DNA of 46,375 nt from Escherichia phage N15, in sequence record NC_001901.1; one strand, 5' to 3'. Shown here one piece after another: positions 22,121 through 46,363 of the stretch. The position numbers and the translations under genes are program-made. Every line of letters begins with the position of its first letter. Positions within the stretch are counted from its first letter, which is position 1. Under the pieces are notes generated by a model. It was not told the DNA's origin. It searched no databases and saw only the letters and a program-made list of their open reading frames with translations.

Positions 22121-23149
22121 CTATTTTTTCTCTTTATTTTTTATAATATTTTCCAACTTATCGAGGTCGCGATTAACCTGCTCAGCTGCACCTAATTCTG
22201 CCTCCAATAACGCTTCTATTTTTTTTATTAAATTAGAGGGTATTTTACGGCTATCTACTTTCAAAGTGACAAAACTACCCTTGTATTTAGCTACAACACC
22301 TTCACCATATTTCTTCTCGGTCTTGGGCATTTCTTCCTTATCGACAAGAATAAAGTCCTGTAGTGCCTGAATAATTCTTGCGGGCTCGAAATCCTCTCCA
22401 GCTTGCTTCATACGAAGCAACTGCTTCGCACCATCGAGCATAGTCTGCTCGTTACCCTTATACACTTTAGATAAAGCATCGCCAGCGCGAGCTGATAGCT
22501 CTCCCGGATGCTTGAAGATAGACAGGATCTCCCTCGGTAATCCGGCGGTATTCATGCAGCGGTTCACGATATTACGGTCGATGCCCTCTGCTTCAGCCAG
22601 GGCTTTAACGTTACCATCAAATTCTTTCAGTCGGCGCAAGTACCGTTTCCCGCGTTCGTATGCACTGGTTGGCCGATAGTCGTTACCCAACTGTGACAAC
22701 TGCTGCATTTGTTCATCATCCAGCTCTCCAACGAGAACCCGATAATCGCTACCAGTGATGATGGCTGTTTTGCGGCGGCGTGAGCCATCGGCAATTTCGA
22801 TAATGCCTGACGTCCTTCTGGCGAACGCGGGGTTCTGCTGTCCTGAAGTGAGGAATGAAGGGATAAGGTCGGCCAGCGCTGATTCGTTCAGCAATTCCTG
22901 ATCACGTTCATTACCGAGCCAAACCATTGTGGCCTTTTCGACTTTATCAGCAGGAATGGTTTCCAGCTTAAAAGTCACGTTGCGGCCGCAAACCGGTAGC
23001 GTAATGCTATTCCCGGACAACGAACTTAATTTGCTCTGTAAGTCGCCAACCATCGGCGAAACCGATGGCGCTTTTTGCGGCGCATTATGGTTATTGCTCA
23101 TGAACGTTTCGATGTTGGGCGCATTTTTTAATATAGAGCGATTCTTCAT
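22121..23149 (-). CDS. sopB: partition protein SopB (ParB family)
   Basis: ITLPVCGR, GNERDQELL, DLIPSF, GIIEIADGSRRRK, GELDDEQM, GNDYRPTSAYERG match F-plasmid SopB; ATG 23149 with GGGAGG RBS. Confidence 0.9.
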   Translation of the reverse strand: MKNRSILKNAPNIETFMSNNHNAPQKAPSVSPMVGDLQSKLSSLSGNSITLPVCGRNVTFKLETIPADKVEKATMVWLGNERDQELLNESALADLIPSFLTSGQQNPAFARRTSGIIEIADGSRRRKTAIITGSDYRVLVGELDDEQMQQLSQLGNDYRPTSAYERGKRYLRRLKEFDGNVKALAEAEGIDRNIVNRCMNTAGLPREILSIFKHPGELSARAGDALSKVYKGNEQTMLDGAKQLLRMKQAGEDFEPARIIQALQDFILVDKEEMPKTEKKYGEGVVAKYKGSFVTLKVDSRKIPSNLIKKIEALLEAELGAAEQVNRDLDKLENIIKNKEKK

Positions 23150-23151
23150 AG

Positions 23152-24315
23152 TTAGTCCTCCCAACGAGGTTTGATTAGATCTTCGAAAATTTCTTTGCAG
23201 ACTGGCTCCCAGATTTCCACTGCATTTCGCCAGGCATTAAGCGTTGAGCGTTGATTTGCTGCTTGCTCAAATACGGTGCGCATCTTGATCTGGCCTTTAC
23301 CAACTTCATCAGTGACCCGCACGACCTGTCGCAAGACCATAGCTCCCCAGGTATTTCGAATCTGCTCCTCCATCCACCGGGACTGATTGCCGTTAGTAAG
23401 GCTGTATTTGGTCAGGAGCAGGCGGACGACAGGTTCAAAGCCGCCCAAATCGACGGTTTCAAGCAGGTCGAGCAGCATGGTGAAAAACTGAAGAACTGAT
23501 GCATAGTCGAACAGCTCTGCAGGGGTTGCTACCACGATGACGTCAGCAGCACAGACAACGTTAATAGTTCCCGTACCCAAGTTTGGCGCGCTGTCTATGA
23601 CGATAATGTCGTAGTTATCCCATACAGACTCGATAGCAGCACGAAGCATCAGATGAGGGGGATGAGGTAGCTTCCCCTCGGAATGGTACTGCATCAGATC
23701 TGTTTCAATGCGGTGAAGGGCCAGGCAGCTGGGGATTATGTCGAGACCCGGCCAGCATGTTGGTTTTATCGCATATTCAGCGTTGTCGCGTTTACCCAGG
23801 TAAAATGGAAGCAGTGTATCGTCTGCGTGAATGTGCAAATCAGGAACGTAACCGTGGTACATAGATGCAGTCCCTTGCGGGTCGTTCCCTTCAACGAGTA
23901 GGACGCGGTGCCCTTGCAAGGCTAACCATTGCGCCTGGTGTACTGCAGATGAGGTTTTATAAACCCCTCCCTTGTGTGACATAACGGAAAGTACAACCGG
24001 GTTTTTATCGTCAGGTCTTTGGTTTGGGTTACCAAACACACTCCGCATATGGCTAATTTGGTCAATTGTGTAGCCAGCGCGACGTTCTACTCGGCCCCTC
24101 ATCTCAAAATCAGGAGCCGGTAGACGACCAGCTTTTTCCGCGTCTCTGATAGCCTGCGGTGTTACGCCGATCAGGTCTGCAACTTCTGTTATACCCCAGC
24201 GGCGAGTAATACGACGCGCTTCCGGGCTGTCATCGCCGAACTGTGCGATGGCAATAGCGCGCGTCATTTCCTGACCGCGATTGATACAGTCTTTCAGCAA
24301 ATTAATTAACGACAT
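23152..24315 (-). CDS. sopA: partition ATPase SopA (ParA family, Walker-type)
   Basis: EMTRAIAIAQF..DDSPEARRITRRW, KGGVYKTS Walker A, near-colinear with F SopA; likely start 24315 (GAGG RBS); ORF extends to 24360. Confidence 0.9.
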   Translation of the reverse strand: MSLINLLKDCINRGQEMTRAIAIAQFGDDSPEARRITRRWGITEVADLIGVTPQAIRDAEKAGRLPAPDFEMRGRVERRAGYTIDQISHMRSVFGNPNQRPDDKNPVVLSVMSHKGGVYKTSSAVHQAQWLALQGHRVLLVEGNDPQGTASMYHGYVPDLHIHADDTLLPFYLGKRDNAEYAIKPTCWPGLDIIPSCLALHRIETDLMQYHSEGKLPHPPHLMLRAAIESVWDNYDIIVIDSAPNLGTGTINVVCAADVIVVATPAELFDYASVLQFFTMLLDLLETVDLGGFEPVVRLLLTKYSLTNGNQSRWMEEQIRNTWGAMVLRQVVRVTDEVGKGQIKMRTVFEQAANQRSTLNAWRNAVEIWEPVCKEIFEDLIKPRWED

Positions 24316-24376
24316 CCTGTTTCCTCTCAAACATGCCCTTATCTTTGTGTTTTTCATCATACTTTACGTTTTTAAA

Positions 24377-24774: not shown

Positions 24775-24830
24775 TATCAGCACACAATTGCCCATTATAC
24801 GCGCGTATAATGGACTATTGTGTGCTGATA
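24775..24830. other. telRL telomere resolution site: 56-bp inverted repeat with central 22-bp perfect palindrome (telO) CCATTATACGCGCGTATAATGG
   Basis: TATCAGCACACAAT...ATTGTGTGCTGATA outer arms and central palindrome read directly; matches remembered N15 telRL. Confidence 0.9.
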
Positions 24831-32800: not shown

Positions 32801-33860
32801 TGATGTCGAATCCGGTGCGGAGGCCTGTGTTGCCTTTTCCTTCAGCTGAGGATTTGCGGTCGTTATCGAGAGCGCAAGTGATTTGCGCAGCCGGGTACAT
32901 GTTCACCAGCTGCTCGACAACGTGAATCATGTTGTTAGCGGAAACCGCAATGACTACCGCGTCAAAGCGTTTTTTCGGGTCGTTTCTGGTCGCCAGCCAG
33001 ATGGATGCCCCGGTGGCGAAACCCTCTGCAGTCGCAATTTTTTGCGCCCCCTGCAGGTCGCCAATAACAAAGCATGCACCGACGAAATCACCGTTAGTGA
33101 TGGCGCTGGTCTGGAACTTGCCACCATTCAGATCGATACGTTGCCAGCCAACAATCCGCCCGTCTTTTCTTCCGTCCAGGTGGGACAGAGGTATCGCCAT
33201 GTAAGTTGTTGGTCCACGGCTCCATTTCGCACTGTCGTGACTGGTCACGCGACGTATATCACAAGCGCCAAATACGTCACGAATTCCCTTTTTTACCGCA
33301 TAAGGCCAGGAGCCATCTTCAGCTGGCGAATGTTCCCAGGCGCGATGGAAAGCCAACCATCCAAGCAGGCGTTCCTGCTCCATCTGATTGTTTTTTAAAT
33401 CATTAACGCGTTGTTGTTCAGCTCGGAGGCGGCGTGCTTCAGCCTGGCGCTCCATGCGTGCACGTTCTTCTTCCGGCTGAGCGACCACGGTCGCACCATT
33501 CCGTTGCTGTTCACGGCGATACTCCGAAAACAGGAATGAAAAGCCACTCCAGGAGCCAGCGTCATGCGCTTTTTCAACGAAGTTAACGAAAGGATAACTG
33601 ATGCCATCCTTGCTCTGCTCAAGGCGTGAATAGATTTCCACACGGCCTTTAAGGCTCTTCTGCAGAGCTTCCGGGGAGGAATTATTGTAGGTGGTATAGC
33701 GCTCTACACCACCGCGCGGATTGAGCTGAATCTTATCAGCACACGCAGGCCAGTTGATACCGGCCATCTTCGCCAGCTCAGTCAGCTCATCACGTGCCGC
33801 GTCAAGCAGTGAAAACGGATCGCTGCCAAAGCGCTCCGCGTAGAATTCTTGTAAGGTCAT
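29886..33860 (-). CDS. repA: replication protein RepA, multidomain primase-helicase
   Basis: 1324 aa; Walker A GMGSGKST; size and position (downstream of cB) as N15 RepA. Confidence 0.9.
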   Translation of the reverse strand: MTLQEFYAERFGSDPFSLLDAARDELTELAKMAGINWPACADKIQLNPRGGVERYTTYNNSSPEALQKSLKGRVEIYSRLEQSKDGISYPFVNFVEKAHDAGSWSGFSFLFSEYRREQQRNGATVVAQPEEERARMERQAEARRLRAEQQRVNDLKNNQMEQERLLGWLAFHRAWEHSPAEDGSWPYAVKKGIRDVFGACDIRRVTSHDSAKWSRGPTTYMAIPLSHLDGRKDGRIVGWQRIDLNGGKFQTSAITNGDFVGACFVIGDLQGAQKIATAEGFATGASIWLATRNDPKKRFDAVVIAVSANNMIHVVEQLVNMYPAAQITCALDNDRKSSAEGKGNTGLRTGFDIMEKFSGVKCVYPTFEDDPELECSDFNDLHSLRGLKEVARQLTRNHLSRATDLLSITLNKLRTLPRLNRRTFAKELLRAVDIGMLTCPVPNSPKELMRLFSSTLRDMGIAEIYNGTVKDHITRRLNRKCRAAQTSRSFSERITNPNLRPSHITYKRFETSRMTDEVMTYAAQLQGIVIVRAGMGSGKSTGLLRPLMLQSTRGVSVAHRVSLIGGLHEMMTEGKGAKADILHYQDPGYQEMAPYANKLTICINSILKGCWQPLMRQHDFFGFDEATQGLRAILAGRAMENPVGVFNTLIDALARTEEHAIMVDADANDLLVDLAELAMKRREELGLPAWLQIHVIELPVDVRNRETNKPIRVFYTEKNRIMTEVIAAVQRGERIMLATDSSTFAEDVTMQLRLQFPDKKFLCVNQKNKQEKEVDDFTNQPKVMVKKYDGLIYSPSISSGVSIEEKHFHRHFGMFCGEVVPSDAIQMLRRDRTAQEYIIGFDKLRGKRETDPEKIKRAYAQALLETAGHSGLLTDVVFDGDRISLGVANSSFMQLKIKAAALEASARNDYASNMICIMHDDGYQVAPMATDALANSIGKDLRKEARELVFEQLMERHLSVDTPDQAEHDELIKKRTLSLDEQAQLVRWDIEKELQLDVDEVALKFYFDGGLKKVRLFETMQLDEITARRLDREEALIHFTYAYRVAGRWQQFVTTAMTREQADAEFQAKFPAITDYRVKSTPAVEIGMRGFYTLKSATLQQYFRDCGIDPKTLEGEADMDALKRARDNLLTPERRDLLNNVLRIGGFNTEKGKKKAPADLCIGILESMGLSSKTRRARDGDARPTMRSIDPDSVEFLMNIVEKRREAGLSIHARKVEKTTIEVDRDLDLNIDIHGNPRSKTEHVPDAPQSVIIQALEAIPVAVPEAWAENALPATEMEAVRLWPVASIARTFASLYMTEFMDLLSVREIRLLKAFLSQRQAVAI

Positions 33861-34798: not shown

Positions 34799-35014
34799 AT
34801 GAAACCCGAAGAACTTGTGCGCCATTTCGGCGATGTGGAAAAAGCAGCGGTTGGCGTGGGCGTGACACCCGGCGCAGTCTATCAATGGCTGCAAGCTGGG
34901 GAGATTCCACCTCTACGACAAAGCGATATAGAGGTCCGTACCGCGTACAAATTAAAGAGTGATTTCACCTCTCAGCGCATGGGTAAGGAAGGGCATAACA
35001 GTGGAACTAAATAG
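34799..35014 (+). CDS. cro: Cro-like repressor
   Basis: 71 aa, divergent from cB, HTH GVTPGAVYQWLQAG. Confidence 0.75.
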   Translation: MKPEELVRHFGDVEKAAVGVGVTPGAVYQWLQAGEIPPLRQSDIEVRTAYKLKSDFTSQRMGKEGHNSGTK

Positions 35015-35747
35015 CATTCGGGCCTGTGTATCTACGGCTCTGTCAGATATTCATTATCTCCAGCGCGGCATCCTTGAGGTCCAGCTGGAGCAGCTGCGTC
35101 TCGCAAGCTCTGACCGTTTCACTGACAAACCAACCAGAACGATCTGCATCGGCGATACGGAATCTTATGAAATCTCTGTGCCTGCCGAACCCGTTCGTTA
35201 TCACGTTGGTAAATCCTTCAAACGGTCTTCAATGCTGCTGACTGAATTAGATTTCATGACCGCCAGCTGGCGACGTGCCATTGAGCAGTTAAACAGTGAA
35301 GAAACTGCATGGTTGCATTATTGCTATGGATGCAAACCAAATTATAAGAATGATGTAACTGTTTGCCAGTGGCTGTGGATGGATTTTTTAATTGCGCATT
35401 CCAGAGCGGGCTTTAAAAAAATGAAAGCCCCAACAAAAAAAATTATGCAGAGATTAACTTACTACGGAATACAGCAAGTTAAATGTGAAATATTTCACGA
35501 ACTGCATGATTCGGATATTGATGGAATGGAGCGAGACGAACACATAAGTTCTTTAGTGGGTGTATCCGTCGAAAGCTGGCGTAAGGATTATAAAAAACGC
35601 TGGTTATTACTGAAATCACGATGCATGCATCTTAACGATACCGCGTTATTAAATGCGGCGGAGAAGCGCTGTGAAATCATCGAAAGCCATCGTGCAAGAA
35701 GTGCCGACCTGCCTGTGTCAGCAGGTTATGCTCAGGAAACCAGATAA
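35001..35747 (+). CDS. putative late-gene antiterminator (Q-like by position); start uncertain (GTG 35001 with AAGGAAGGG RBS, or ATG 34959)
   Basis: Position immediately after cro as in lambdoid phages; Cys cluster CYGC...C; no motif-level confirmation possible. Confidence 0.4.
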   Translation: MELNSIRACVSTALSDIHYLQRGILEVQLEQLRLASSDRFTDKPTRTICIGDTESYEISVPAEPVRYHVGKSFKRSSMLLTELDFMTASWRRAIEQLNSEETAWLHYCYGCKPNYKNDVTVCQWLWMDFLIAHSRAGFKKMKAPTKKIMQRLTYYGIQQVKCEIFHELHDSDIDGMERDEHISSLVGVSVESWRKDYKKRWLLLKSRCMHLNDTALLNAAEKRCEIIESHRARSADLPVSAGYAQETR

Positions 35748-35973
35748 GCCTGTACTCCGGTACTCTGGCCTCCGTAACGAGTACATCATCTGGTGCCCGA
35801 CATGCGGCTATCGGACTCTTCCTGACAGTAACAGGCAATCCGTAATTACTGAATGGTATTTATCAAATCAACCAGGCAACAAGCATATAGAAAATATCTG
35901 GCTCAAACGTTATCTGGAAATCAAAGAGGGTGCGACCTCGGTCGCACGAGATAATGAAGAATACTCCATTTAA
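35719..35973 (+). CDS. possible small protein with CPTC motif; contains centromere-like palindrome in its 3' end
   Basis: 85-aa ORF, weak RBS; coding status uncertain. Confidence 0.25.
   Translation, partial: QQVMLRKPDKPVLRYSGLRNEYIIWCPTCGYRTLPDSNRQSVITEWYLSNQPGNKHIENIWLKRYLEIKEGATSVARDNEEYSI
35930..35947. repeat. centromere-like palindrome GTGCGACCTCGGTCGCAC (SopB-binding site candidate)
   Basis: One of three copies of GTGCGACC-NN-GGTCGCAC in the window. Confidence 0.7.
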
Positions 35974-36157
35974 GCAAGGCCCCATGTCGCGCACTGATGC
36001 GGAAAATATTTCTGACCTTTATAAGAAAAAAGGTCATGAAGTAGTTATCGCAGAATCCATGAATTTAGATGGAACTTATTATGTTTACGTTACGCTACCT
36101 GAATTAAAGCAAGAGCCTAAGCCATCCAAAACCTTTCAACAAAGAATATGGGAGTAA
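35954..36157 (+). CDS. hypothetical small protein (alternative start 35984)
   Basis: ORF with AAGG RBS before 35984. Confidence 0.35.
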   Translation: MKNTPFKQGPMSRTDAENISDLYKKKGHEVVIAESMNLDGTYYVYVTLPELKQEPKPSKTFQQRIWE

Positions 36158-36159
36158 CA

Positions 36160-37074
36160 ATGGTAAATATCCAAAAAACGATTTTAGCGATGATTATGCA
36201 TAAATGGCTTAAGAGCGATTATGTTGTCATTGACACGGAAACAACAGGGCTGGGCGAATATGCTGAGATTATCGAAATTGCGATCATCAATATGCGCGGA
36301 GAAGTTTTGCTGGACACTTTGGTTAAACCGACCAAACCGATCCCTCCTGAAGTAACCGAAATAAACCACATCACAAACGAAATGGTCGCCAGTGCACCAG
36401 CGTGGTGTGATGTGTTCCCGAAGGTGCTGGCGATCATCAGTAAACACAAATGGCTGGCCTGGAATTCTGGTTTCGATGCTCGCATGCTGGAACAGACCTG
36501 CTTGAACACGATTTTTTTAAATAAAAATGCTTATTACGTGACCGCAATGGTTTCCCGTATTCACACGAGCCATATTGACGCTAAAGCAGTCTACGACACG
36601 TGGTACGGAGAGTACGATGCGAAGCACCAGGCTTTCAAGCGCCAGAGCCTGACAATCGCAGCTGCCCGACACGGTGTATTGCTGGAAGGAGCACACCGCG
36701 CTCTGGCCGACTGCAAAATGGTTCTGGCCGTACTGCAAAAAGTCTGCGCTCCCGTTCCTCAGATTGAAAGCTCTGTCGAGAAAGACCTGCCACCCTGCCC
36801 GTTCTGTTATGGGCCACCATCGTTGTTCACCCATTACCTGAATGACAAAGGCTATTCCCCTTTATATCAGCCCGTGAATTATGGCGATGATGGCCTGTAC
36901 GTAGGTTCGTATGTCTTTTGCCATGAATGCGGCGCACAGGGTGAAGAAGTAGGAGGCCACGCCTACGAAGATTCAGATGTAGAGCAGCTCGAAGCAGCAG
37001 CCAGGAATGTCTGGTCCGATCGCAACGAACGCCACCGCGACCTGTATACAGCCTCTCGAAACGTCGAAGAGTAA
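36160..37074 (+). CDS. DnaQ-like (DEDDh) 3'-5' exonuclease with C-terminal Cys-rich zinc-ribbon-like domain
   Basis: VVIDTETTGL (Exo I), WNSGFDARML (Exo II), HRALADC (Exo III); C-terminal CPFC...CHEC; RBS GGAG. Confidence 0.7.
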   Translation: MVNIQKTILAMIMHKWLKSDYVVIDTETTGLGEYAEIIEIAIINMRGEVLLDTLVKPTKPIPPEVTEINHITNEMVASAPAWCDVFPKVLAIISKHKWLAWNSGFDARMLEQTCLNTIFLNKNAYYVTAMVSRIHTSHIDAKAVYDTWYGEYDAKHQAFKRQSLTIAAARHGVLLEGAHRALADCKMVLAVLQKVCAPVPQIESSVEKDLPPCPFCYGPPSLFTHYLNDKGYSPLYQPVNYGDDGLYVGSYVFCHECGAQGEEVGGHAYEDSDVEQLEAAARNVWSDRNERHRDLYTASRNVEE

Positions 37075-37079
37075 GATGA

Positions 37080-37580
37080 ATGAACAGACTCAATCAAATC
37101 GCACTGGTGACAGCCATCACCAAAGAACTTAACCGACAAATTCCCGATTTACCCGCAGATGGACGGATGAACATAGTCATCAAAGCAGCCAACGATATCT
37201 GTGCTGAGTATTCCCGTGAACTGGTTGCCGCTTCTGCAGGTATGGGGTTGGAAGCATGGTTGAATAGCGACGACACCGGCAGCAGCAGCCTCTATTTGGC
37301 ATGGTGCTTGAGTCACGGCCAGTTTGGTTACTGGCAGGGACGCAAGCAGCCAGAGGTGGCTTATCCCCATGACCCAGATGATCTTGGGCGCTGCATTCGC
37401 CTGATAGAGGCAGTGCCTGAGTTCGGCGGCAAGATACCAGAGATGTCTCACCGTGGGCATGAGTGGCTGGCGGTAACAACCAATTGGGAACGGTGGGTTG
37501 AACTTTACGCCTGCGGTAAGGCCCGTGAACTCTATAGAGAAATGAAGGCTGCATATTTAAGAGGTAGCAGCGATGAGTAA
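37080..37580 (+). CDS. hypothetical protein
   Basis: 166-aa ORF, tight packing. Confidence 0.5.
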   Translation: MNRLNQIALVTAITKELNRQIPDLPADGRMNIVIKAANDICAEYSRELVAASAGMGLEAWLNSDDTGSSSLYLAWCLSHGQFGYWQGRKQPEVAYPHDPDDLGRCIRLIEAVPEFGGKIPEMSHRGHEWLAVTTNWERWVELYACGKARELYREMKAAYLRGSSDE

Positions 37581-38166
37581 ATCCCCTAAAGAAATGTATG
37601 CGGTCCCTGAGTGGATGCGTCAGTTCCTGCCGTTGTTTCAAAACACAGGGGGTAATGACGTCGAGGAGCTGCTGCACGATGAAGACACCAACATGTTTGC
37701 CAATAGCGTTCGCTACATGTTTATCGTGTCAGCGCGTTCTCAGTTTGCCTTGCTGATGGATATGTATAGCAAAGGCATCATCACTGGCAGAACTGGCGCA
37801 GAAGAAAGTTCCGACACACTAACCGATGGTCAATTACTTTTTCGCTTGCAGGACTTCTATGGCGCAGGACAAGACGCCATTGAGATTAACGATCATGAAT
37901 ATGCTCAGGAATGTACTGACGTTGTAAGCATCATTCGCGAGGTCATTGAATCACGGAAAAAACTGAAAGACGCAGAGAAGCGGATTGCTGAACTGGGTCG
38001 CAAGCCGACATGGATTAACCATTGTGACAAGACGGTTCCAGCTGCACTGCGATATTTAGCCGAGAATCCGCGACCGATTGGTGGAAGCTCGACTTATAAC
38101 ACCGAACATCTTTATGACCTGGCGCGTGAAATAGAAGTTACTGCCGGTACCACGAAAGGAGAGTGA
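37573..38166 (+). CDS. hypothetical protein
   Basis: 197-aa ORF overlapping neighbours by a few nt. Confidence 0.5.
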   Translation: MSKSPKEMYAVPEWMRQFLPLFQNTGGNDVEELLHDEDTNMFANSVRYMFIVSARSQFALLMDMYSKGIITGRTGAEESSDTLTDGQLLFRLQDFYGAGQDAIEINDHEYAQECTDVVSIIREVIESRKKLKDAEKRIAELGRKPTWINHCDKTVPAALRYLAENPRPIGGSSTYNTEHLYDLAREIEVTAGTTKGE

Positions 38167-38477
38167 GCATGGCTAACTTGCTCGACTTACTCGGCATCGA
38201 ATCCCGGCGCTGTAGCATGACGCTTGTTGAGTACAAATATGACCCGAATGAGAGGGAGCGACTTTCAAAGTATCTCGTCAGGCATACATCCAGCGTTAGC
38301 AAAACAACCCTAGAGCAATACGTCACCGTTGAGCGCGACCGTTATGGAGCATTCAAGCCTGTTGTCGCATTGGACGATTTTCCCAGCGGACTAAGCGACA
38401 GGGAATCAATGTTGAAACTGGCGGACTGGCTGCATCGCCTTGGCGTAGCGATTGAAGATGAATGGAGTAACCCATGA
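38163..38477 (+). CDS. hypothetical protein
   Basis: RBS AAGGAGAG; overlapping start/stop. Confidence 0.55.
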   Translation: MSMANLLDLLGIESRRCSMTLVEYKYDPNERERLSKYLVRHTSSVSKTTLEQYVTVERDRYGAFKPVVALDDFPSGLSDRESMLKLADWLHRLGVAIEDEWSNP

Positions 38478-38893
38478 TCACTATCACCAAAGAATGGCTG
38501 CAGAAGACCATCGCTGAATTTGAAACTAACTGCGACGATATTCCCTTTGGACTGGACGATGATGACGCGAAAATTCTGCAGGTTCTGAAATGGAAACTCG
38601 CATCGCTGGCCGTTGATACTTCTGCGGCTGGTATCGTCGACTACGGCGGCCCTTTATCACTTTCAGAGGAGTTTGTTTATACGTTTCGATCCTCGCGCTT
38701 AATCGCGTTGGGTGAGCCTGTGTATACCGTTCCACCTGCAAAGGATGTCCAGCAAGTAGCCGAACTGACAATGCTGGTTAAACGCTTAGCCTACTCCCTC
38801 AGACACGCTAAACCAGACAGTAAATTGCCCGATGATGCTATGTCCTATTTGAGCGGAAAGGGCCTGATTAGGATTGAGGATATTTTGCGATGA
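38474..38893 (+). CDS. hypothetical protein
   Basis: RBS GGAG; overlapping start/stop. Confidence 0.55.
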   Translation: MITITKEWLQKTIAEFETNCDDIPFGLDDDDAKILQVLKWKLASLAVDTSAAGIVDYGGPLSLSEEFVYTFRSSRLIALGEPVYTVPPAKDVQQVAELTMLVKRLAYSLRHAKPDSKLPDDAMSYLSGKGLIRIEDILR

Positions 38894-38945
38894 TCACCAC
38901 CAGAAAATGCATGCCGGCAGCGGCAGTATCACAGGAGACTAAGTG

Positions 38946-39272
38946 ATGGCACTGACACCCGCAGAACGGCAAAGGATCCGCCGAGAGAAGCTAAAAAAGC
39001 AAGGAACCACCAGGCGTGATTGGGTTCTGGAGCCGGATGAGCTGCGTATGCTCGGCGAAATTTGCATACAGCGTCGTCCGGGGCGAGAGCCGTATTCTGA
39101 AAATGAGGTTATTGGCCTCCTGATCCGCAAGAACTACAAAGAGCTGCAAAAGAAACTTTCCGGTTCGTGTTCGCGGTGTGGGAAGCAACTTCCGGTAGCC
39201 GATTGCCTGTTTGATGGCGAAGGTACATGCCAGCTGACCACTCTCAGATTGAAGCTGGCCATTAAAGCGTGA
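38946..39272 (+). CDS. hypothetical protein with C-terminal CxxC
   Basis: RBS AGGAG before ATG 38946. Confidence 0.5.
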   Translation: MALTPAERQRIRREKLKKQGTTRRDWVLEPDELRMLGEICIQRRPGREPYSENEVIGLLIRKNYKELQKKLSGSCSRCGKQLPVADCLFDGEGTCQLTTLRLKLAIKA

Positions 39273-39292
39273 CTGGTCACGGAGGGTTAAAA

Positions 39293-39514
39293 ATGGATAA
39301 AAAAGCATTGTTATTCGAACGCCTTCGGCAGAGAAGCGAAAGCAGTCTGGCCAGCGGAGGTGATGGGTTTATTTTTGCCTCAATGCTGGCGTTCGACATC
39401 GGTCTGAACACAAGAACGATCCGGGGGATGCTGGACTCTGCTGTGAAAAATGGAACCCTGGAAAAAAAAGAACGTGGAGCTGGCCGTGCACATAAGTACC
39501 GGACAATTCAGTAG
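39293..39514 (+). CDS. hypothetical protein (73 aa)
   Basis: RBS GGAGGG 5 nt before ATG; preceded by palindrome GTGACTGGTCAC. Confidence 0.5.
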   Translation: MDKKALLFERLRQRSESSLASGGDGFIFASMLAFDIGLNTRTIRGMLDSAVKNGTLEKKERGAGRAHKYRTIQ

Positions 39515-39563
39515 TTTAATCAAAAAAATTGCCAAAAAATGGTTGTATCGTTTGCGGATTTCC

Positions 39564-39579
39564 CTGTGTTTATATACAG
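39564..39579 (+). promoter_or_regulatory. LexA (SOS) box CTGTGTTTATATACAG
   Basis: CTGT-N8-ACAG with AT-rich centre, immediately followed by TATTAAAT (-10-like). Confidence 0.7.
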
Positions 39580-39603
39580 TATTAAATAACCTTGGTAGAC
39601 AAA

Positions 39604-39831
39604 ATGGTATACGATTCAATGACAGATGCAGCCGTGTCATGTTGTGAAAAACTTGATTCCCAGCTAAGCGATCTCGATGCTGTCCTGGATATGGTGAGCA
39701 CCGTTATGGCCTCACCAGAGGCCAGCCTTCATATGAATGAGGCGGCACGTCTTCTGCGCATGTCTCGTAATATGGTCCACAGATGCAAGGATGTTGTCGC
39801 GGATGAGCTCATTCGGCAGGCTGGCGAATAA
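39604..39831 (+). CDS. small protein (75 aa) under LexA box; candidate SOS-inducible antirepressor
   Basis: First ORF downstream of LexA box; N15 is reported to be induced via an SOS-regulated antirepressor, but assignment to this ORF is my inference. Confidence 0.4.
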   Translation: MVYDSMTDAAVSCCEKLDSQLSDLDAVLDMVSTVMASPEASLHMNEAARLLRMSRNMVHRCKDVVADELIRQAGE

Positions 39832-39866
39832 AAAAGGGAAAGGCGAGATACCCTCGCCTTTCCCTT
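39827..39866. terminator. bidirectional terminator (12-bp stem) between + strand small gene and - strand toxin-antitoxin operon
   Basis: gggaaaggcgag / ctcgcctttccc stem with A-run upstream. Confidence 0.65.
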
Positions 39867-39895
39867 GTTACTTCACCTGCAGATACTCGTCTTAA

Positions 39896-40183
39896 TCAAT
39901 ACACAGCATGAATATCAATGCTTGCACCGCAAGCCTTAGCGTATCGAGATAGTGTCTTCATGCTGGCACCTAGTGGGTTGCTTTCCAGGCGGCTAATTGC
40001 TGATGGCTGCAACCCCATGCGTTCAGCCAGCGCAGACTTCGTCAGGCCAGCTTTCTCCCTCATCTCGTAGAGCATTTCAACCATCGCCAACTCCTTGTCG
40101 GCATCTTCGTAACCCCGGATAGCCTCCGGGGTATTGAGCAGTTCTTCTTTCACCTGATTAAATGGGATGCCTTTTACTTTCAT
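39896..40183 (-). CDS. HTH (XRE-family) antitoxin, HigA-like
   Basis: 95 aa; LTKSALAERMGLQPSAISRLE HTH; ATG overlaps toxin stop (TAATG). Confidence 0.75.
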   Translation of the reverse strand: MKVKGIPFNQVKEELLNTPEAIRGYEDADKELAMVEMLYEMREKAGLTKSALAERMGLQPSAISRLESNPLGASMKTLSRYAKACGASIDIHAVY

Positions 40184-40494
40184 TAGCTCATCTCCTTCAG
40201 ACGCGTTCTGGCGATATCAATTGCGTGGGTAGGCGTCTTTTGCGTCTTCTTAACAAATGCATGTAGCAGATAAATTTCGTTACCTACCGCGTAAGCGTAC
40301 AGCGTTCTCGCTATGTTTTTATCCCCTACCCTTAGTTCGAAAAGGCCACCACCGATAACGCGGCTATGAGGCATTTTCAGCTTGTTCCCTTCACTTTCCA
40401 GTCTCTCGATCAGCCGGGTCATGCGACCGCGTAGCTCATCAGGTAATTCTTTAAGCTCATCCAGCGCTGCCGGGTGGGTTATCACGTTAAACAT
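40183..40494 (-). CDS. RelE/ParE-superfamily toxin, HigB-like (toxin-first operon)
   Basis: 103 aa from ATG 40494 with AGGAGG RBS; LKMPHSRVIGGGLFELRV...LYAYAVGNEIYLLHAFVKKTQKTP typical of this family. Confidence 0.75.
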   Translation of the reverse strand: MFNVITHPAALDELKELPDELRGRMTRLIERLESEGNKLKMPHSRVIGGGLFELRVGDKNIARTLYAYAVGNEIYLLHAFVKKTQKTPTHAIDIARTRLKEMS

Positions 40495-40554
40495 AGTATA
40501 ACCTCCTGATGTGGAAAATATACTAAAAACGTAAAAATCACACAATAGGCAAAT

Positions 40555-40570
40555 TTCACTAAAAAGTGAA
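40555..40570. promoter_or_regulatory. palindrome TTCACTAAAAAGTGAA upstream of toxin-antitoxin promoter (operator candidate)
   Basis: 5-bp inverted arms; candidate -35 TTGTGT / -10 TATATT on - strand just downstream. Confidence 0.45.
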
Positions 40571-40660
40571 AAATAAAGCTGGATGTGCTTATTGGGCAGA
40601 GTTACAGTTTGTGTCGTTGAGAGGGGTAAAGCCCATAACCGCATGAATCTGGAGTAAATT

Positions 40661-40882
40661 ATGAATTATCAAGGCAACGAAAAAATGCGCAAAGATGCGG
40701 CAGATATTTCTAACGAGCTGTATGAGTTATGGCAGAAAGTGAAGCGTTTTGAGCGTGAATACAGCTTTAACAGTAAAAACCTGACCGACCGACTGGCTGG
40801 CCGCCTTATTGGAACGATGGAGCCTAAGCTGGCAGAGTTGAACAAATTTATGGCCGATGTCGATTACCAGTTCGAAGATTAA
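40661..40882 (+). CDS. hypothetical protein (73 aa)
   Basis: RBS GGAG; clean ORF. Confidence 0.5.
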   Translation: MNYQGNEKMRKDAADISNELYELWQKVKRFEREYSFNSKNLTDRLAGRLIGTMEPKLAELNKFMADVDYQFED

Positions 40883-40891
40883 GGAGGCTCT

Positions 40892-41119
40892 ATGCACGCG
40901 AAAGAAATACGCCGGAATATGACCGAAGAAGCGTTAAGCGTTGAGTTCGTAATGCGTGGGCATCCACGCATTAGCCTGGCAGAGCTGAGTGAAGCCTGCC
41001 GCTTAAGCCAGGCATCAACAGAGTTTATTATTGAGCAGATGGTTTGTTTTGGTGTGGCGCGGCGCGGCGCTTTCGGAAGATACTCACTAACAAACGAGTA
41101 TGAAAACGGAATAATCTGA
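40892..41119 (+). CDS. hypothetical protein (75 aa)
   Basis: RBS AAGGAGG. Confidence 0.55.
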   Translation: MHAKEIRRNMTEEALSVEFVMRGHPRISLAELSEACRLSQASTEFIIEQMVCFGVARRGAFGRYSLTNEYENGII

Positions 41120-41123
41120 TATC

Positions 41124-41141
41124 GTGCGACCATGGTCGCAC
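41124..41141. repeat. centromere-like perfect palindrome GTGCGACCATGGTCGCAC
   Basis: Perfect 18-bp palindrome (20 bp with flanking C/G). Confidence 0.75.
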
Positions 41142-41161
41142 GGAATAGAAAACGAAAAAGG

Positions 41162-41190
41162 TTGGCAAAACAGCTATTTTTAGGTATCTT
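41162..41190 (+). promoter_or_regulatory. candidate promoter TTGGCA-17-TATCTT (possible late promoter)
   Basis: Good -35/-10 match with 17-bp spacer; intrinsic terminator about 40 nt downstream, as in lambdoid PR'/tR' units. Confidence 0.45.
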
Positions 41191-41226
41191 TTTTCTAAGT
41201 TGGGATTTTTACGCCTGACTTCCGAA

Positions 41227-41251
41227 TAACCGCCTACGGGCGGTTTTTTTG
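41227..41251 (+). terminator. rho-independent terminator (tR'-like)
   Basis: accgcctacgggcggt hairpin + T7. Confidence 0.7.
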
Positions 41252-41386
41252 TGCCTGAAAAAGTGGGCGCGGGACGAGTTGCAGCTCATCCCGCGGTCAA
41301 CCCATGCCAGAGGTATAGGCTGAACCCAAAGCCCACCCGCGATGCGCATCGCTGGGTTAGCTTACCCAGGCAGAACCATAATAGCT

Positions 41387-42475
41387 ATGTTAAAAACTAC
41401 ACAAATCAATGGAGCGCAGCTCGTTTGCGCAGATTCTCTGCAATTCATAAAAACCATCCCTGATAATTCCGTAAACCTGATCGCGACAGACCCGCCCTAT
41501 TTTGGCGTTAAGTCGAACGACTGGGACAACCAGTGGGAAAGTGACGCGGACTTTTTGGGCTGGCTTGATGAGTTTCTGGCGGAGTTCTGGAGGATACTGG
41601 CCCCAAATGGAAGCCTGTATATGTTTTCCGGTTCGCGGCTTGCGGCAAAAGTTGAATTACTTACCCGCGACCGTTTCAATGTTTTGAACCACATCACCTG
41701 GGCTAAACCGAGCGGTGTATGGCGGCGGCAAAATAAAGAGAGCCTGCGAGCATTCTTCCCGGCAACCGAGCGCATCATATTCGCTGAACATTACGGCGCG
41801 TCTGGCTATGCGAAAGGTCAGTCGGGTTATGCCAGCAAATGTGCAGAGTTGCGGAAAGACGTATTTTCTCCGTTGATTGGAGCATTTGCATCAGCCCGAC
41901 AGCAGCTGGGGATTTCAGCTGCGGACATCAACGCTGCGACAGGGAAAAAGATGTGTTCACACTGGTTTTCCTCGTCGCAGTGGCAGTTACCGTCGCTGGA
42001 TGACTTCAACAAGCTGCATGAGCTGTTTATGCAGCGGGCGCAAGTTCTCGGCGTAGCATGTCCTCCGCCATTCGATATCGGGTATAGCGAGCATGAAAAG
42101 CAGTATGCCGATCTAAAAACGCAATACGATGCGGTTAAAGCGCAATACGATGGCCTTAAGGCTCAGTATGAAAGCCTGCGCCGCCCGTTCTCTGTGACTG
42201 CAGATGTTCCCTATACGGATGTTTGGGAGTTCCCACCGGTGCAGTATTACCCAGGGAAACACCCGTGCGAGAAGCCAGCTGCGATGATGGAACATATCAT
42301 CAGGAGCAGCTCTCGCCCCGGCGATGTAGTCGCCGACTTCTTCATGGGGTCCGGTAGTACGATTAAGGAGGCTCTGAAGCTTGGGCGTAAGGCCATAGGC
42401 GTAGAAATTGAAGAAGAGCGTTACCTGCAGACAGTAGAAGAAGTTAAAGAAGTAGTAAAAAAAGAAGAGAGTTGA
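41387..42475 (+). CDS. DNA N6-adenine methyltransferase (beta-class, DPPY before FxGxG)
   Basis: NLIATDPPYF (motif IV) precedes DFFMGSGST (motif I); start uncertain (41342 or 41387). Confidence 0.8.
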   Translation: MLKTTQINGAQLVCADSLQFIKTIPDNSVNLIATDPPYFGVKSNDWDNQWESDADFLGWLDEFLAEFWRILAPNGSLYMFSGSRLAAKVELLTRDRFNVLNHITWAKPSGVWRRQNKESLRAFFPATERIIFAEHYGASGYAKGQSGYASKCAELRKDVFSPLIGAFASARQQLGISAADINAATGKKMCSHWFSSSQWQLPSLDDFNKLHELFMQRAQVLGVACPPPFDIGYSEHEKQYADLKTQYDAVKAQYDGLKAQYESLRRPFSVTADVPYTDVWEFPPVQYYPGKHPCEKPAAMMEHIIRSSSRPGDVVADFFMGSGSTIKEALKLGRKAIGVEIEEERYLQTVEEVKEVVKKEES

Positions 42476-42488
42476 TCTCACTTATACA

Positions 42489-42512
42489 ACCCGCCTCTGG
42501 CGGGTTTTTTAT
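42489..42512 (+). terminator. rho-independent terminator after methyltransferase
   Basis: cccgcctctggcggg hairpin + T6. Confidence 0.7.
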
Positions 42513-42609
42513 TGGTGCCGTCCAGGCGACATCTTTGCGTTATTCCGTAATGCATCGGGCGGCGTTTCATCTGCACACAGCCTCCGCAAATATAGCGAGG
42601 TAAGAGACC

Positions 42610-42915
42610 ATGAGAATGAACGATCACTCAGGGAACATCTTCACGCAATTATTTGCGTGGCTTGGAACCATAGCTGCAGCGCTGGGTTTTACCACCCAAG
42701 ACATGATTTACATGTTTTTCGGGGCTGTGGGGCTTCTAATCTCCCTTGCATCCTTCATCAACGGAAGAATTGATGCACGCCGCCGTCGGAAAGAAGATGA
42801 GAAGCGAACGGCAATGATAAGGGCTTACCTGGAAGAAGTTAGCGATAAGCCTATCGAAGAACGTCCGACAGCGGTGAGCGTAGTAGCGGATGTACTCGCT
42901 AAGGCAGGCGAGTGA
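42610..42915 (+). CDS. holin (two TMDs, dual-start MRM motif)
   Basis: Two hydrophobic helices, charged C-terminus, Met-Arg-Met N-terminus; first gene of lysis cassette. Confidence 0.7.
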   Translation: MRMNDHSGNIFTQLFAWLGTIAAALGFTTQDMIYMFFGAVGLLISLASFINGRIDARRRRKEDEKRTAMIRAYLEEVSDKPIEERPTAVSVVADVLAKAGE

Positions 42916-43451
42916 TGGCTAACAGGGCAAAATTAAGCGCAGCCGTTCTAAGTTTGATTCTTGCTGGCGCGTCAGCCCCACAAATTCTCGACCAGTTTTT
43001 GGATGAGAAAGAGGGAAATAGCCTTACTGCTTACAAAGATGGCAGCGGCATCTGGACGATATGCCGTGGTGCCACAATGGTTGATGGCAAGCCAGTAATG
43101 CAGGGCATGAAGTTGACGCAGGCCAAATGCAATCAGGTAAACGCCATCGAACGCAATAAGGCTCTTGCGTGGGTTGACCGCAATATCAAAGTTCCTCTGA
43201 CCGAACCGCAGAAAGCCGGTATCGCATCTTTCTGCCCGTACAACATAGGCCCAGGCAAATGCTTCCCATCGACGTTCTATAAGCGTCTTAATGCTGGCGA
43301 CCGCCACGGGGCTTGTGAGGCGATCCGATGGTGGATAAAGGATGGTGGCCGCGACTGTCGACTGACCAAGGGCCAGAAGAATGGATGCTATGGGCAAGTT
43401 GAGCGGCGTGACCAGGAAAGTGCGTTGACGTGCTGGGAGATAGACCAGTGA
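42915..43451 (+). CDS. SAR endolysin, T4-lysozyme-like (GH24)
   Basis: N-terminal weakly hydrophobic Ala/Gly/Ser-rich signal-anchor; catalytic E...D...T in EGNSLTAYKDGSGIWT; phage 21 R-like. Confidence 0.85.
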   Translation: MANRAKLSAAVLSLILAGASAPQILDQFLDEKEGNSLTAYKDGSGIWTICRGATMVDGKPVMQGMKLTQAKCNQVNAIERNKALAWVDRNIKVPLTEPQKAGIASFCPYNIGPGKCFPSTFYKRLNAGDRHGACEAIRWWIKDGGRDCRLTKGQKNGCYGQVERRDQESALTCWEIDQ

Positions 43452-43993
43452 ATCCGTCCCCATTAATCGCAGCAATAAAAGCCTGGTGGAAGCCTTTATT
43501 CGTGCTGATTTTTGCGGCCAGCGCGTTTATCGCTGGCAATGTCTGGAGCAACAGGGCATGGGAAAAAAGGTGGGCTGACCGTGATAGTGCTGAGTCCTCG
43601 CAAAAGGTCAACGCGCAGACAGCCGCCAGAATGATAGAGCAAGGGCGAATTATTGCCCGTGATGAGGCCGTAAAGAATGCCAAAGAGAAAGCAGCTGCCG
43701 CGCGTGATGCTTCTGCTCGTTTGGCTGGCACTGTTAGTCAGCTGCAGCAACAGGCAAGAAAACTCGCTACCCGCCTGGACGCCGCAAAGCACACCGCAGA
43801 TCTTGCCGCTGCCGTCAGAGGCAAAACAGCCGGAGCCAACGCTGCAGTGCTCGCCGACATGCTCGGAAGTCTTGCAGCAGAAGCTAAATATTATGCTGAA
43901 CGATCTGACGAAAGCTATCGAGCAGGAATGACCTGCCAGCGTATTTATGACTCGGTTAGAGAGTCAAATAACCAATCTGGAGCCTCGCAATAG
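43430..43993 (+). CDS. Rz-like inner-membrane spanin (i-spanin)
   Basis: N-terminal TMD then Ala/Gln/Arg-rich coiled coil; GTG start (43430 or 43448) overlapping endolysin end. Confidence 0.7.
   Translation: MLGDRPVNPSPLIAAIKAWWKPLFVLIFAASAFIAGNVWSNRAWEKRWADRDSAESSQKVNAQTAARMIEQGRIIARDEAVKNAKEKAAAARDASARLAGTVSQLQQQARKLATRLDAAKHTADLAAAVRGKTAGANAAVLADMLGSLAAEAKYYAERSDESYRAGMTCQRIYDSVRESNNQSGASQ
43677..43931 (+). CDS. Rz1-like outer-membrane lipoprotein spanin embedded in +1 frame of Rz (start 43677 or 43707)
   Basis: Lipobox LLVSC after hydrophobic leader; Pro-rich mature part; embedded in Rz. Confidence 0.6.
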   Translation: MPKRKQLPRVMLLLVWLALLVSCSNRQENSLPAWTPQSTPQILPLPSEAKQPEPTLQCSPTCSEVLQQKLNIMLNDLTKAIEQE

Positions 43994-44029
43994 CGGGGCT
44001 TTTTTATAGCTAAAATCAGCGGAGAGAAA

Positions 44030-44233
44030 ATGGCGAAAATCAAACTGACCCTCGAACAAATTAAATCTTTGGCTAAGTTTGCAGAGGAAGAAGGCCAGCC
44101 TGAATACACAATCTGTCATGGTCAAATCCCCGGCTTCGATAATGTTCCAGATTACAATGGTTTGATTGCGTTTTCTGGCTCTGAAGAGCATGGCGTTCTG
44201 GCTTTGGAAGATATGGAGCAGGGTGATAAGTGA
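44030..44233 (+). CDS. hypothetical protein (67 aa)
   Basis: RBS GGAGAGAAA. Confidence 0.5.
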   Translation: MAKIKLTLEQIKSLAKFAEEEGQPEYTICHGQIPGFDNVPDYNGLIAFSGSEEHGVLALEDMEQGDK

Positions 44234-44565
44234 TGAAAGTTTATATCGCCGGGCCAATGACAGGCCGTGAAAATTATAACCGTGCCGCTTTCAATAAAGA
44301 GGCAGACCGCCTTACCCGCCACGGTCACACAGTTCTGAACCCAGCCAGCCTTCCTGATGGTCTGGAACAGCGCGAATACATGGATATCTGTTTTGCGATG
44401 CTCCGCTGCGCTGATGCAATCATGATGCTGCCAGGCTGGCAAGCGTCGTCCGGTGCGACAGCCGAATATCACTACGCGTACAAAATGGAATTGCCAGTCT
44501 ATACGGTTCTGCATTATCCACCTGTAGCGCTTGAGAAGGAAATTGATGAGCGCCTTTTACAATGA
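44233..44565 (+). CDS. DUF4406-like / nucleoside 2-deoxyribosyltransferase-like protein
   Basis: N-terminal MKVYIAGPMTG motif; ATG overlaps previous stop. Confidence 0.55.
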   Translation: MKVYIAGPMTGRENYNRAAFNKEADRLTRHGHTVLNPASLPDGLEQREYMDICFAMLRCADAIMMLPGWQASSGATAEYHYAYKMELPVYTVLHYPPVALEKEIDERLLQ

Positions 44566-45541
44566 ATTTGAAAGATATCCCGCAACATGGCTAAGCAACC
44601 TGATCGCGAACGGTTCAATAGCAAACGGCATTGTTGATGAGCGCTCTATTGTTGATGTTGCTCCGTCAGATGTTATCAATAAAACGCAATGCCACTGGTT
44701 TGCTGGGATTGGAGTTTGGAGTTATGCGTTGCGTTTAGCTGGCTGGCCAGATAGCCGTTCTGTATGGACAGCCAGCCTGCCATGCCAGCCGTGGAGCTCT
44801 GCAGGAAAGGGAGGAAAATTTGATGACGAACGACACCTCTGGCCTGTGTTTTTCAGACTCGTTAAAGAGTGCCGCCCTCCAGTCATTTTTGGTGAGCAGG
44901 TTTCAAGCAAGGACGGCCTTGAGTGGTTCTCAGCTGTACAAACTGACCTGGAAAATGCGGGCTATGCCGTTGCAGCGCTTGATACATGCGCAGCGAGCGT
45001 CGGTGCTCCGCACATCAGACAAAGAATCTTCTGGATGGCCTACGACTACAGCCAGCAATACCAAAACGGCGATAAAGGATGTAGTGAAAATACTGGCCAG
45101 AAGAGCAGCGGGACGACAGTCGAACTTGCAGGATGTAGCAGTTCTTGCCGGATGGAATACACCGACAGCATCAGACTGCAAAGGAGGGTATCAGGGAGGG
45201 AGGATACGAAACGGGAAATTATCGACCGACCGCCTGGATGTAACATCGCAGTTGGCGGGATGGTCACCCGAAACGCTCCCGTCACTGAATTCAAACCAGA
45301 AAATCACAGCGCCCTGGGGGCCGTGCAGACTGACTCATACTGGAGAGATATTGACTGGCTCTTCTGCCAGGATGGAAAGTGGAGGCCAGTTGAACCCTCA
45401 TCATTCCCGCTGGCTGATGGGATTGCCGGTCGAGTGGGCCAGTTGCGCGCCTACGGGAACGCGATAGTCGCTCCATTAGCGGCAGCATTCATCACCTCGG
45501 CTTATCAGGCAATCCAGGACTTCGAATCCCAAAAAAAATAA
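44546..45541 (+). CDS. DNA C5-cytosine methyltransferase-like protein
   Basis: FAGIGV (motif I-like), [11 protein letters not shown] (PCQ motif IV), FGEQV (ENV-like), QRIFWMAY (VIII), YGNAIV (X); RBS GAAGGAAA. Confidence 0.6.
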
Positions 45542-45560
45542 CATTTAGTGTTCCGCTTTC

Positions 45561-45578
45561 GTGCGACCACGGTCGCAC
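45561..45578. repeat. centromere-like palindrome GTGCGACCACGGTCGCAC
   Basis: Third copy of GTGCGACC-NN-GGTCGCAC. Confidence 0.7.
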
Positions 45579-45695
45579 GCTTTTCCATTCTCATAGACAT
45601 GAGCGTTGCTGCGTAACGGGTTCATTGCCCAATCTGCGTCGCGTATAGCGCTCATGTTTATGAGAGTTGCCTCAACACATCTAAAAGGATCTATC

Positions 45696-46319: not shown

Positions 46320-46363
46320 CTATTATCGTTTACGGGTCCTTTCCGGCAATCCGCCCTGTTACG

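Follow-up and report, generated by a model that had tools for sequence, protein, structure and literature searches.

Our analysis covered the complete 46,375-bp genome of the coliphage and linear plasmid N15 (the window), a replicon that encodes both a ParA-type ATPase and a protein with a SopB helix-turn-helix domain and that also bears four dispersed inverted repeats, IR1 to IR4 (Table 1). Besides the ATPase domain, the N-terminal part of SopA gave a MerR-type match that remained below the Pfam threshold (23.0 bits against a cut-off of 28.2). A set of 19-bp repeats was also seen in the sopA promoter region, at 24374-24420.

Table 1. Coordinates of the partition genes, inverted repeats, and neighboring elements in the N15 genome
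Feature	Position	Strand	Basis and context
sopB, ParB-family centromere-binding protein	22121..23164	-	Pfam SoPB_HTH, E=8e-21; F SopB crystal structure 3mky, E=6e-39
sopA, Walker-type ParA partition ATPase	23152..24360	-	Pfam AAA_31/CbiA/ParA
telRL, protelomerase target palindrome	24775..24830	no strand	28+28 nt inverted repeat; neighboring telN with protelomerase Pfam domains
IR1	33479..33496	no strand	GAGCGACCACGGTCGCAC, 1 mismatch; repA codons 122-127; flanks match oligonucleotide f1t (PMC7205306, Table 4)
IR2	35930..35947	no strand	Center TC; flanks match oligonucleotide f2t; within 3' end of a small ORF
IR3	41124..41141	no strand	Perfect 18-bp palindrome, center AT; flanks match oligonucleotide f3t
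Putative late promoter TTGGCA-17-TATCTT	41162..41190	+	Consensus scan; comparable to lambda PR'
Intrinsic terminator after short leader	41228..41252	+	Terminator scan; comparable to lambda tR'
IR4	45561..45578	no strand	Center AC; flanks match oligonucleotide f4t

Four palindromic sites and their map positions

An exact search of the genome for GTGCGACCNNGGTCGCAC returned three matches, IR2, IR3, and IR4, in agreement with an earlier note on this DNA that had reported three copies of GTGCGACC-NN-GGTCGCAC at these positions and with these centers. Allowing one to three mismatches yielded exactly one further site, IR1, which departs from the pattern at a single base; this is the imperfect copy inside repA, the fourth site that the note had mentioned as reported and had not located. 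The mismatch in IR1 is synonymous (GCT vs GCA, both alanine) and is thus not forced by coding. No exact match to GTGCGACCNNGGTCGCAC occurred in 100 dinucleotide-preserving shuffles, so that the copies do exceed chance, as had been claimed, and a four-site recurrence of this kind is not expected by chance. An unbiased genome search for perfect palindromes of the form 7-N(0-4)-7 found 38, among which the only arm to recur was that of the IRs. IR4 is intergenic, with a C5-methylase-like gene on one side and the last gene before cos on the other. A search of Rfam gave no match at E<=0.1 across 33000-46375.

The distance between the sites and sopAB depends on the map that is used. The earlier note had placed its three copies 11-21 kb from sopAB, which holds for the virion (cos-ended) map, where IR2 to IR4 lie 11.6-21.2 kb and IR1 lies 9.1 kb from these genes, but not for the linear prophage map, opened at telRL (24802/24803) and joined at cos, where all four sites are 22.9-35.0 kb from sopB. 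Because telRL sets the ends of the prophage, the latter map gives the true plasmid positions of the sites, and all four IRs lie there on the telN-proximal arm, 8.7-20.8 kb from the telN-side telomere.

A conventional sopC array next to sopB, which the note had named as evidence that would contradict dispersed sites, was looked for with Tandem Repeats Finder (TRF) and a repeat search. Downstream of sopB, TRF reported no tandem array over ~11 kb (no entry between 12226 and 23240), the repeat search of 21300-24900 found no array, and the half-site TGCGACC/GGTCGCA was absent between 15.6 kb and 33.4 kb. An F-type sopC array adjoining sopB was therefore rejected.

Relation to F sopC and published identity of the sites

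The SopA and SopB proteins of N15 and F are homologous, N15 SopB matching the DNA-binding domain of its F counterpart, and the palindromes of the two systems are built alike, with 7-bp arms and a 2-bp center that is usually AC/GT. The 16-bp N15 core, TGCGACCNNGGTCGCA, and the F sopC core, TGGGACCNNGGTCCCA, are one base apart per half-site and identical at 14 of 16 positions; when the N15 genome was searched with the F core, the matches comprised only IR2 to IR4, each with two mismatches. The arrangement of the sites, however, differs: F sopC consists of 10-12 copies of a 43-bp tandem repeat directly beside sopB, each holding one 16-bp inverted repeat, whereas the four N15 copies stand singly, 9-21 kb from sopAB on the virion map, and form no array. 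The change of one base per half-site corresponds to a difference in specificity, as F SopB is nonfunctional with the N15 IRs, and a hybrid protein with the F DNA-binding domain does not bind them (PMC7205306).

Oligonucleotides representing the natural N15 IR1 to IR4 with their flanks have been tabulated (PMC7205306, Table 4), and all four genome sites match them together with the flanking sequence. The sole difference across the four is in IR1, where the synthetic oligonucleotide has the perfect arm GTGCGACC (PMC7205306) and the genome reads GAGCGACC, an arm that is also found at IR1 in close relatives of N15. Foci of N15 SopB form on an array of the four IRs, 4xIR (PMC7205306). N15 has also been grouped with RK2 and pSM19035 as a case of dispersed centromere-like sites, with Ravin and Lane (1999) and Grigoriev and Lobocka (2001) cited for N15 (PMC3235114). 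The claim of the earlier note that SopB-binding centromere sites are scattered through this genome is borne out by the oligonucleotide match, and its reading from sequence recognized a textbook exception to the usual layout, in which a centromere array adjoins parB. That N15 has dispersed SopB sites is already known from the literature of 1999-2008, which established the biology (four sites, one abutting the late promoter, and a role of Sop in late gene expression), and finding the sites therefore has no discovery value in itself. In the 1999 work of Ravin and Lane and the 2001 work of Grigoriev and Lobocka, an N15 site in cis reportedly stabilizes an unstable replicon given SopAB.

We consider it about 95% probable that the four palindromes are IR1 to IR4, the parS-type sites that make up the dispersed centromere of SopABC, the type Ia partition system of N15, and we infer that SopB is the protein that binds them. 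The sites, their recurrence, the oligonucleotide match, sopAB, the lack of an array, the conservation of position, and the change of site in phage PY54 (see below) come from the present analysis, and the SopB foci on the IRs and the centromere function come from the literature (PMC7205306 and secondary citations).

Conservation of site placement and alternative readings

phiKO2 and MStein-2023a each have four sites at positions syntenic with those of N15, and PhiR46_1 has five; the phiKO2 annotation labels its sites 'putative plasmid partitioning site'. IR1 lies 364 nt into repA and IR2 begins 183 nt past the stop codon of the Q antiterminator gene, distances that are identical in phiKO2 and kept in MStein-2023a, PhiR46_1, and many IMG/VR contigs; the same relatives also keep sites 19-20 nt ahead of the late promoter and close to the terminase/cos end. 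These positions are conserved even though the gp52 methylase of the relatives is only ~60% identical at the protein level. The motif occurred in at least 119 IMG/VR stretches, which were picked by the pattern itself, so that conservation of the 18-mer among them is circular and the informative features are the flanks, which are almost unconserved, and the gene contexts, which recur. In the Vibrio phage Valp1, the 16-bp core is kept and the outer bases differ.

Among the relatives, site sequence and ParB homologue change in concert. The SopB proteins of phiKO2 and PhiR46_1 are 75-77% identical to that of N15 and the N15 motif is kept, with the repA site of phiKO2 being imperfect on the other arm than in N15, whereas the SopB of PY54 is 54% identical and is accompanied by the F-type TGGGACCNNGGTCCCA, of which PY54 carries 8 perfect copies and 3 with one mismatch. 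As in N15, the sites of phiKO2 and PY54 are dispersed and lie in the 5' part of repA, past Q, ahead of the late promoter, and toward the end of the late region, and the F-type sites of PY54 thus occupy N15-equivalent positions as well as others elsewhere. The recurrence of the same positions in phiKO2, MStein-2023a, PhiR46_1, and uncultured relatives, and in PY54 with another specificity, points to selection on where the sites lie and not just on their presence. This comparison, which extends the shared positions to a relative with changed specificity, is the modest value added here. In another genome, phiARM81ld, we observed a dispersed 17-bp palindrome in 11-14 copies, many of them intergenic and followed by T-runs; it may be a parS and could equally be a terminator, and it was not counted as support for the reading of N15.

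The palindromes might instead act primarily as RNA hairpins, that is, as intrinsic terminators or attenuators at gene ends rather than as protein-binding centromeres, which we regard as very improbable. Although a terminator-like scan flagged IR4 (plus strand, tail CTTTTCC) and IR2 (minus strand) as weak hairpins and IR4 lies 20 nt past a stop codon, IR1 and IR2 lie within coding sequence, the T-tracts are poor, and the region, with 17 terminator-like matches, is not enriched relative to the 13.7 expected from shuffles. Nothing would lead independent terminators to have in common one and the same 16-18-bp sequence, which also differs from the F SopB site by one base per arm; the sites of PY54 have all switched jointly to the F-type sequence, and in phiKO2 a separate terminator is annotated 37 nt downstream of the IR4 equivalent. 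This reading was rejected, as it fits IR4 weakly and leaves the sites inside coding sequence unexplained.

Even less credible, in our estimation, is that the sites are operators of another N15 DNA-binding protein (the CB repressor, Cro, TelN, or another regulator) and serve gene regulation only. Three of the four adjoin regulatory landmarks (Q, the late promoter, and the point where the late-region genes end), but the motif is close to the F SopB site, and exactly these sequences have been used as SopB-binding IRs on which N15 SopB foci form (PMC7205306). In the N15 immB record, the CB operators are annotated at other positions and have unrelated sequences, and telRL, on which TelN acts, is another palindrome; the CB repressor and TelN were accordingly rejected as binders, with both targets unrelated to the IRs in sequence and position. 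Chance recurrence, or an origin as functionless remnants of small mobile or REP-like repeats, has nothing in its favor beyond the occurrence of short palindromic repeats in enterobacterial genomes, and the shuffle control together with the synteny across diverged relatives effectively refutes it; the unconserved flanks leave no larger repeat unit.

If the four palindromes are the SopB-binding centromere sites of N15, a SopB dimer would bind each 16-18-bp inverted repeat via its helix-turn-helix domain, and the bound SopB would nucleate a larger SopB-DNA partition complex. The ParA-type ATPase SopA would then act on this complex to position the copies of the linear plasmid prophage, whose copy number is low, and to segregate them when the cell divides. 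F has its tandem sopC array next to sopB, whereas in N15 single sites are spread along the telN-proximal arm of the prophage over ~12 kb, at landmarks of the lytic program: one inside repA, one just past Q, one directly ahead of the late promoter, and one before the terminase/cos end. From IR3, and probably also from IR2 beside Q, bound SopB would in addition influence Q-dependent late transcription, through a mechanism that we infer.

IR3 and the putative late promoter

The earlier note had placed a candidate promoter about 20 bp downstream of the copy now recognized as IR3, and the distance from the end of IR3 to the -35 hexamer of the putative late promoter is indeed 20 nt. The promoter matches the consensus at 9 of 12 positions, and such matches were not enriched in the region (8 found vs 15.8 expected); its credibility comes from conservation rather than from the scan. 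The order of IR3, -35, -10, and terminator is conserved in 25 distinct sequences (N15 and 24 relatives), with a gap of 19-20 nt between IR3 and the -35 hexamer, and across this set the -35 hexamer is invariant and the -10 region largely conserved. The stem of the terminator, the presumed target of Q antitermination, is likewise conserved among the relatives and its loop is variable. In phiKO2, the homologous stretch is annotated as 'putative plasmid partitioning site', 'putative late promoter', and terminator. The late-promoter element is also present in PY54, where the promoter-proximal site is ~12 bp closer to the -35 hexamer than IR3 is in N15.

The suggestion of the note that partition could be coupled to late transcription is strengthened by this conserved layout, and a 2008 article by Ravin, Rech, and Lane (J Bacteriol 190:3538) reportedly finds, in the words of its title, that the N15 Sop system facilitates late gene expression. 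The center of IR3 lies at about -64.5 from the inferred transcription start, and the 19-20 nt gap is fixed across the N15/phiKO2 clade. That SopB at IR3 serves as a position-specific transcription factor for the late promoter, beyond being bound to a centromere that happens to lie nearby, seems to us possible but rather doubtful. If this were true, centromere dispersal in telomere phage-plasmids would have been selected for a KorB-like regulatory wiring (IR2 with Q, IR3 with the late promoter, and IR1 with repA); only the direct, spacing-dependent mechanism and its family-wide conservation would be new, an aid of Sop to late expression having already been published.

The KorB protein of RK2/IncP-1, with its 12 dispersed OB operators, resembles N15 SopB in being a ParB-family protein that acts on single scattered palindromes, as do the chromosomal Spo0J/ParB proteins on parS (Spo0J sites around oriC), although the ParB subfamily and the site sequence differ from those of N15 in both cases. 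In RK2, the same sites are used for partition and for transcriptional control. KorB is primarily a global repressor, whereas N15 has only four sites and the effect announced in the title of the 2008 article is a facilitation of late expression.

The four palindromes in the N15 genome

The window, 46,375 bp long, is the genome of N15 oriented as in the virion (cos-ended); its right third shows 99.5-99.9% identity to partial Escherichia phage N15 entries in GenBank (U45242, U63085) and 89% identity to a Ravinvirus from Enterobacter. Directly upstream of sopA, 2.5 copies of a 19-bp direct repeat (AAAGCAAAGCAACATAAAA) presumably represent the sop promoter's SopA operator motifs, which PMC8465637 discusses for N15. 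In the structural-gene region, TRF found a perfect 9-bp tandem repeat (CCGACAGCA, 5.9 copies) that would, if in frame, encode a short peptide repeat.

An exact search for GTGCGACCNNGGTCGCAC returned exactly three matches, with the positions and centre dinucleotides that the earlier note had reported for three dispersed palindromes; 100 dinucleotide-preserving shuffles yielded none, which excludes a chance origin. The number of four reported sites given in the note was also right, as a search tolerating up to three mismatches added a single site, the imperfect copy GAGCGACCACGGTCGCAC inside repA. Unbiased enumeration of perfect 7-N(0-4)-7 palindromes gave 38 genome-wide, among which the GTGCGACCNNGGTCGCAC arm was the sole recurring arm. 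The repeated-palindrome observation is confirmed and completed by this fourth site.

Features of the N15 genome and site positions in two relatives
Feature	Position	Strand	Remark
SopB_HTH protein (sopB)	22121-23164	-	Pfam
ParA-type ATPase (sopA)	23152-24360	-	Pfam
19-bp direct repeats	24374-24420
telRL palindrome	24775-24830		56 bp
Protelomerase (telN)	24953-26890	+	Pfam
Large RepA primase/helicase	29886-33860	-	Pfam
IR1	33479-33496		inside repA
IR2	35930-35947		centre TC
IR3	41124-41141		centre AT
IR4	45561-45578		centre AC
TTGGCA (-35)	41162-41167
TATCTT (-10)	41185-41190
Intrinsic terminator	41228-41245		followed by T7 run
Late leader structure	41263-41336	+	ATG at 41342
9-bp tandem repeat	7264-7316
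PY54 (L123), perfect F-type sites	508, 6566, 26513, 31240, 34394, 39870, 40976, 44409
Valp1 (L125), sites	74, 8051, 26768, 35896

All four sites, flanks included, match the published oligonucleotides IR1-IR4 (PMC7205306), which supports the earlier reading of them as scattered N15 SopB-binding centromere sites. N15 SopB forms normal foci on a 4xIR array and, with its relaxed specificity, can use F sopC too, whereas F SopB works with its own site only (PMC7205306); N15 has also been cited as an instance of dispersed centromere-like sites (PMC3235114). The DNA-binding part of N15 SopB matches the F SopB domain of known crystal structure (E=6e-39), and the 16-bp cores, TGCGACCNNGGTCGCA in N15 and TGGGACCNNGGTCCCA in F (PMC3597684), differ by one base per arm. 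One discrepancy concerns IR1, whose published oligonucleotide carries the perfect left arm GTGCGACC, whereas the genomic arm reads GAGCGACC, as it does in the relative MStein-2023a and several IMG/VR relatives. The deviating base (33480, second of the site) is the third codon position of RepA Ala127; because GCT and the palindrome-completing GCA both encode alanine, coding does not require the mismatch.

A conventional sopC-type array adjoining sopB, which the note had named as evidence against its reading, was sought by TRF and repeat search and none was found, nor did any isolated half-site occur in the roughly 6 kb that lie downstream of sopB or the 9 kb upstream of sopA. Terminator hairpins were considered as another explanation, and a terminator-like scan did give weak scores for IR4 and IR2 on the minus strand, but such hairpins fail to account for sites in coding sequence, for the sequence common to all four sites, and for the concerted switch in PY54 described below. 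Operators of another protein are a very unlikely alternative; the CB operators and telRL differ in sequence from the IR sites. The reading of the palindromes as the dispersed SopB centromere sites of N15 is supported. On the virion map, they lie 9.1-21.2 kb from the sopA start; on the prophage map (opened at telRL, closed at cos), which represents the plasmid that undergoes partition, IR1-IR4 occupy one arm only. Their distances from the telN-proximal telomere are 8.7, 11.1, 16.3, and 20.8 kb, and sopB, located at the opposite end, is 22.9-35.0 kb away.

Site arrangement and sequence among relatives

In the phage phiKO2, whose SopB is 77% identical to that of N15, the depositors marked four sites as 'putative plasmid partitioning site'. 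The repA copy is 364 nt into the gene and another starts 183 nt past the Q stop codon, both distances being the same in N15; a third directly precedes a 'putative late promoter' annotated together with a terminator, and one precedes the last late-region gene block. MStein-2023a has four sites and PhiR46_1 five. The exact motif was present in at least 119 IMG/VR stretches and, where N15-like genes were recognisable, fell inside repA, after Q, upstream of a gp52-like methylase, or upstream of the small terminase gene. In-motif conservation among these loci is circular, the pattern itself having been used to ascertain them; the flanks held almost zero information across 105 distinct contexts, and there is therefore no larger repeat unit.

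In PY54, which has a SopB homologue (SpyB) sharing 54% identity with N15 SopB, eight perfect and three one-mismatch copies of the F-type site TGGGACCNNGGTCCCA are dispersed over the genome, including positions about 367 nt into repA, after Q, and just upstream of the late promoter. Several of these are syntenic with IR1-IR3. The Vibrio telomere phage Valp1, a more distant phage-plasmid, contains four dispersed N15 16-bp cores with T/A outer bases unlike those of N15. Dispersed layout and landmarks alike are thus features of the family, and site sequence can change along with the binding protein, a pattern expected of a protein and its cognate site. The dispersed N15 sites, including their link to late gene expression, are already known in the literature; the comparative evidence is new here and independent of it. 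Aeromonas phiARM81ld (L126), likewise more distant, has a dispersed palindrome, GGGGCCA-N-TGGCCCC (11-14 sites, often followed by T-runs), which was left out as support because it is ambiguous and also terminator-like.

Some N15-like phage-plasmids have an extra SopB-type site and so carry small local clusters rather than strictly single sites, with pairs 220 bp apart (L124, at 17794 and 18014, and loci L004, L011, L015, L030, L068, L073, L086, L089, L105, and L111) or 47 bp apart (L010, L078, L079). Separately, a group of IMG/VR contigs (L006, L007, L013, L018, L020, and about 20 other loci) each hold one exact N15-type site at a distance of 1.4-2.5 kb from a gene only 30-34% identical to N15 ORF 4241-5605 of the head-gene region. 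At least one contig with such a site (L010 and L080 being the same contig) also has repA and Q genes resembling those of N15, with their IR sites, so that in some relatives the virion-gene module contains a further site.

The putative promoter unit beside IR3 and the late leader

Twenty nucleotides separate IR3 from TTGGCA, which is followed by a 17-nt spacer, TATCTT, and an intrinsic terminator. Promoter-like matches in the region were not enriched (8 versus 15.8 expected), so a promoter scan is no proof by itself. Across 25 distinct aligned sequences (N15 and 24 relatives, whose gp52 proteins are as little as 60% identical), conservation covers the IR, an A-rich linker of 19-20 nt, the -35 hexamer, the greater part of the -10 region, the TTTTCTAAGTTGG box, and the terminator stem, while the surroundings diverge; the note's placement of this copy about 20 bp upstream of a candidate promoter holds. 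The unit resembles the lambda PR'-qut-tR' architecture, which the upstream Q antiterminator gene fits, and the IR3 centre would lie at about -64.5 from the start site. The homologous PY54 promoter (TTGCAA-17-TAAAAT, with terminator) has its F-type site 9 nt upstream; the site-promoter link outlasts the change in specificity, although the site is displaced by about 12 bp. Ravin, Rech and Lane are reported to have implicated the IRs next to Q and next to the late promoter. To judge from its title, their paper (Ravin, Rech & Lane 2008) holds that the N15 Sop system facilitates late gene expression.

The first late gene encodes an N6/N4 DNA methylase, and its leader contains, between the terminator and the ATG, a conserved multi-helix RNA structure in which an outer helix (GUGGGC/GCCCAC) accompanies an inner hairpin (RNAalifold, 26 distinct sequences: N15 and 25 relatives, phiKO2 and PY54 among them). 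No Rfam family matched it at E<=0.1. Compensatory changes occur at one pair as GC/AU/UA and at another as AU/GC/UA/CG, and the structure may be an undescribed cis-regulatory element.
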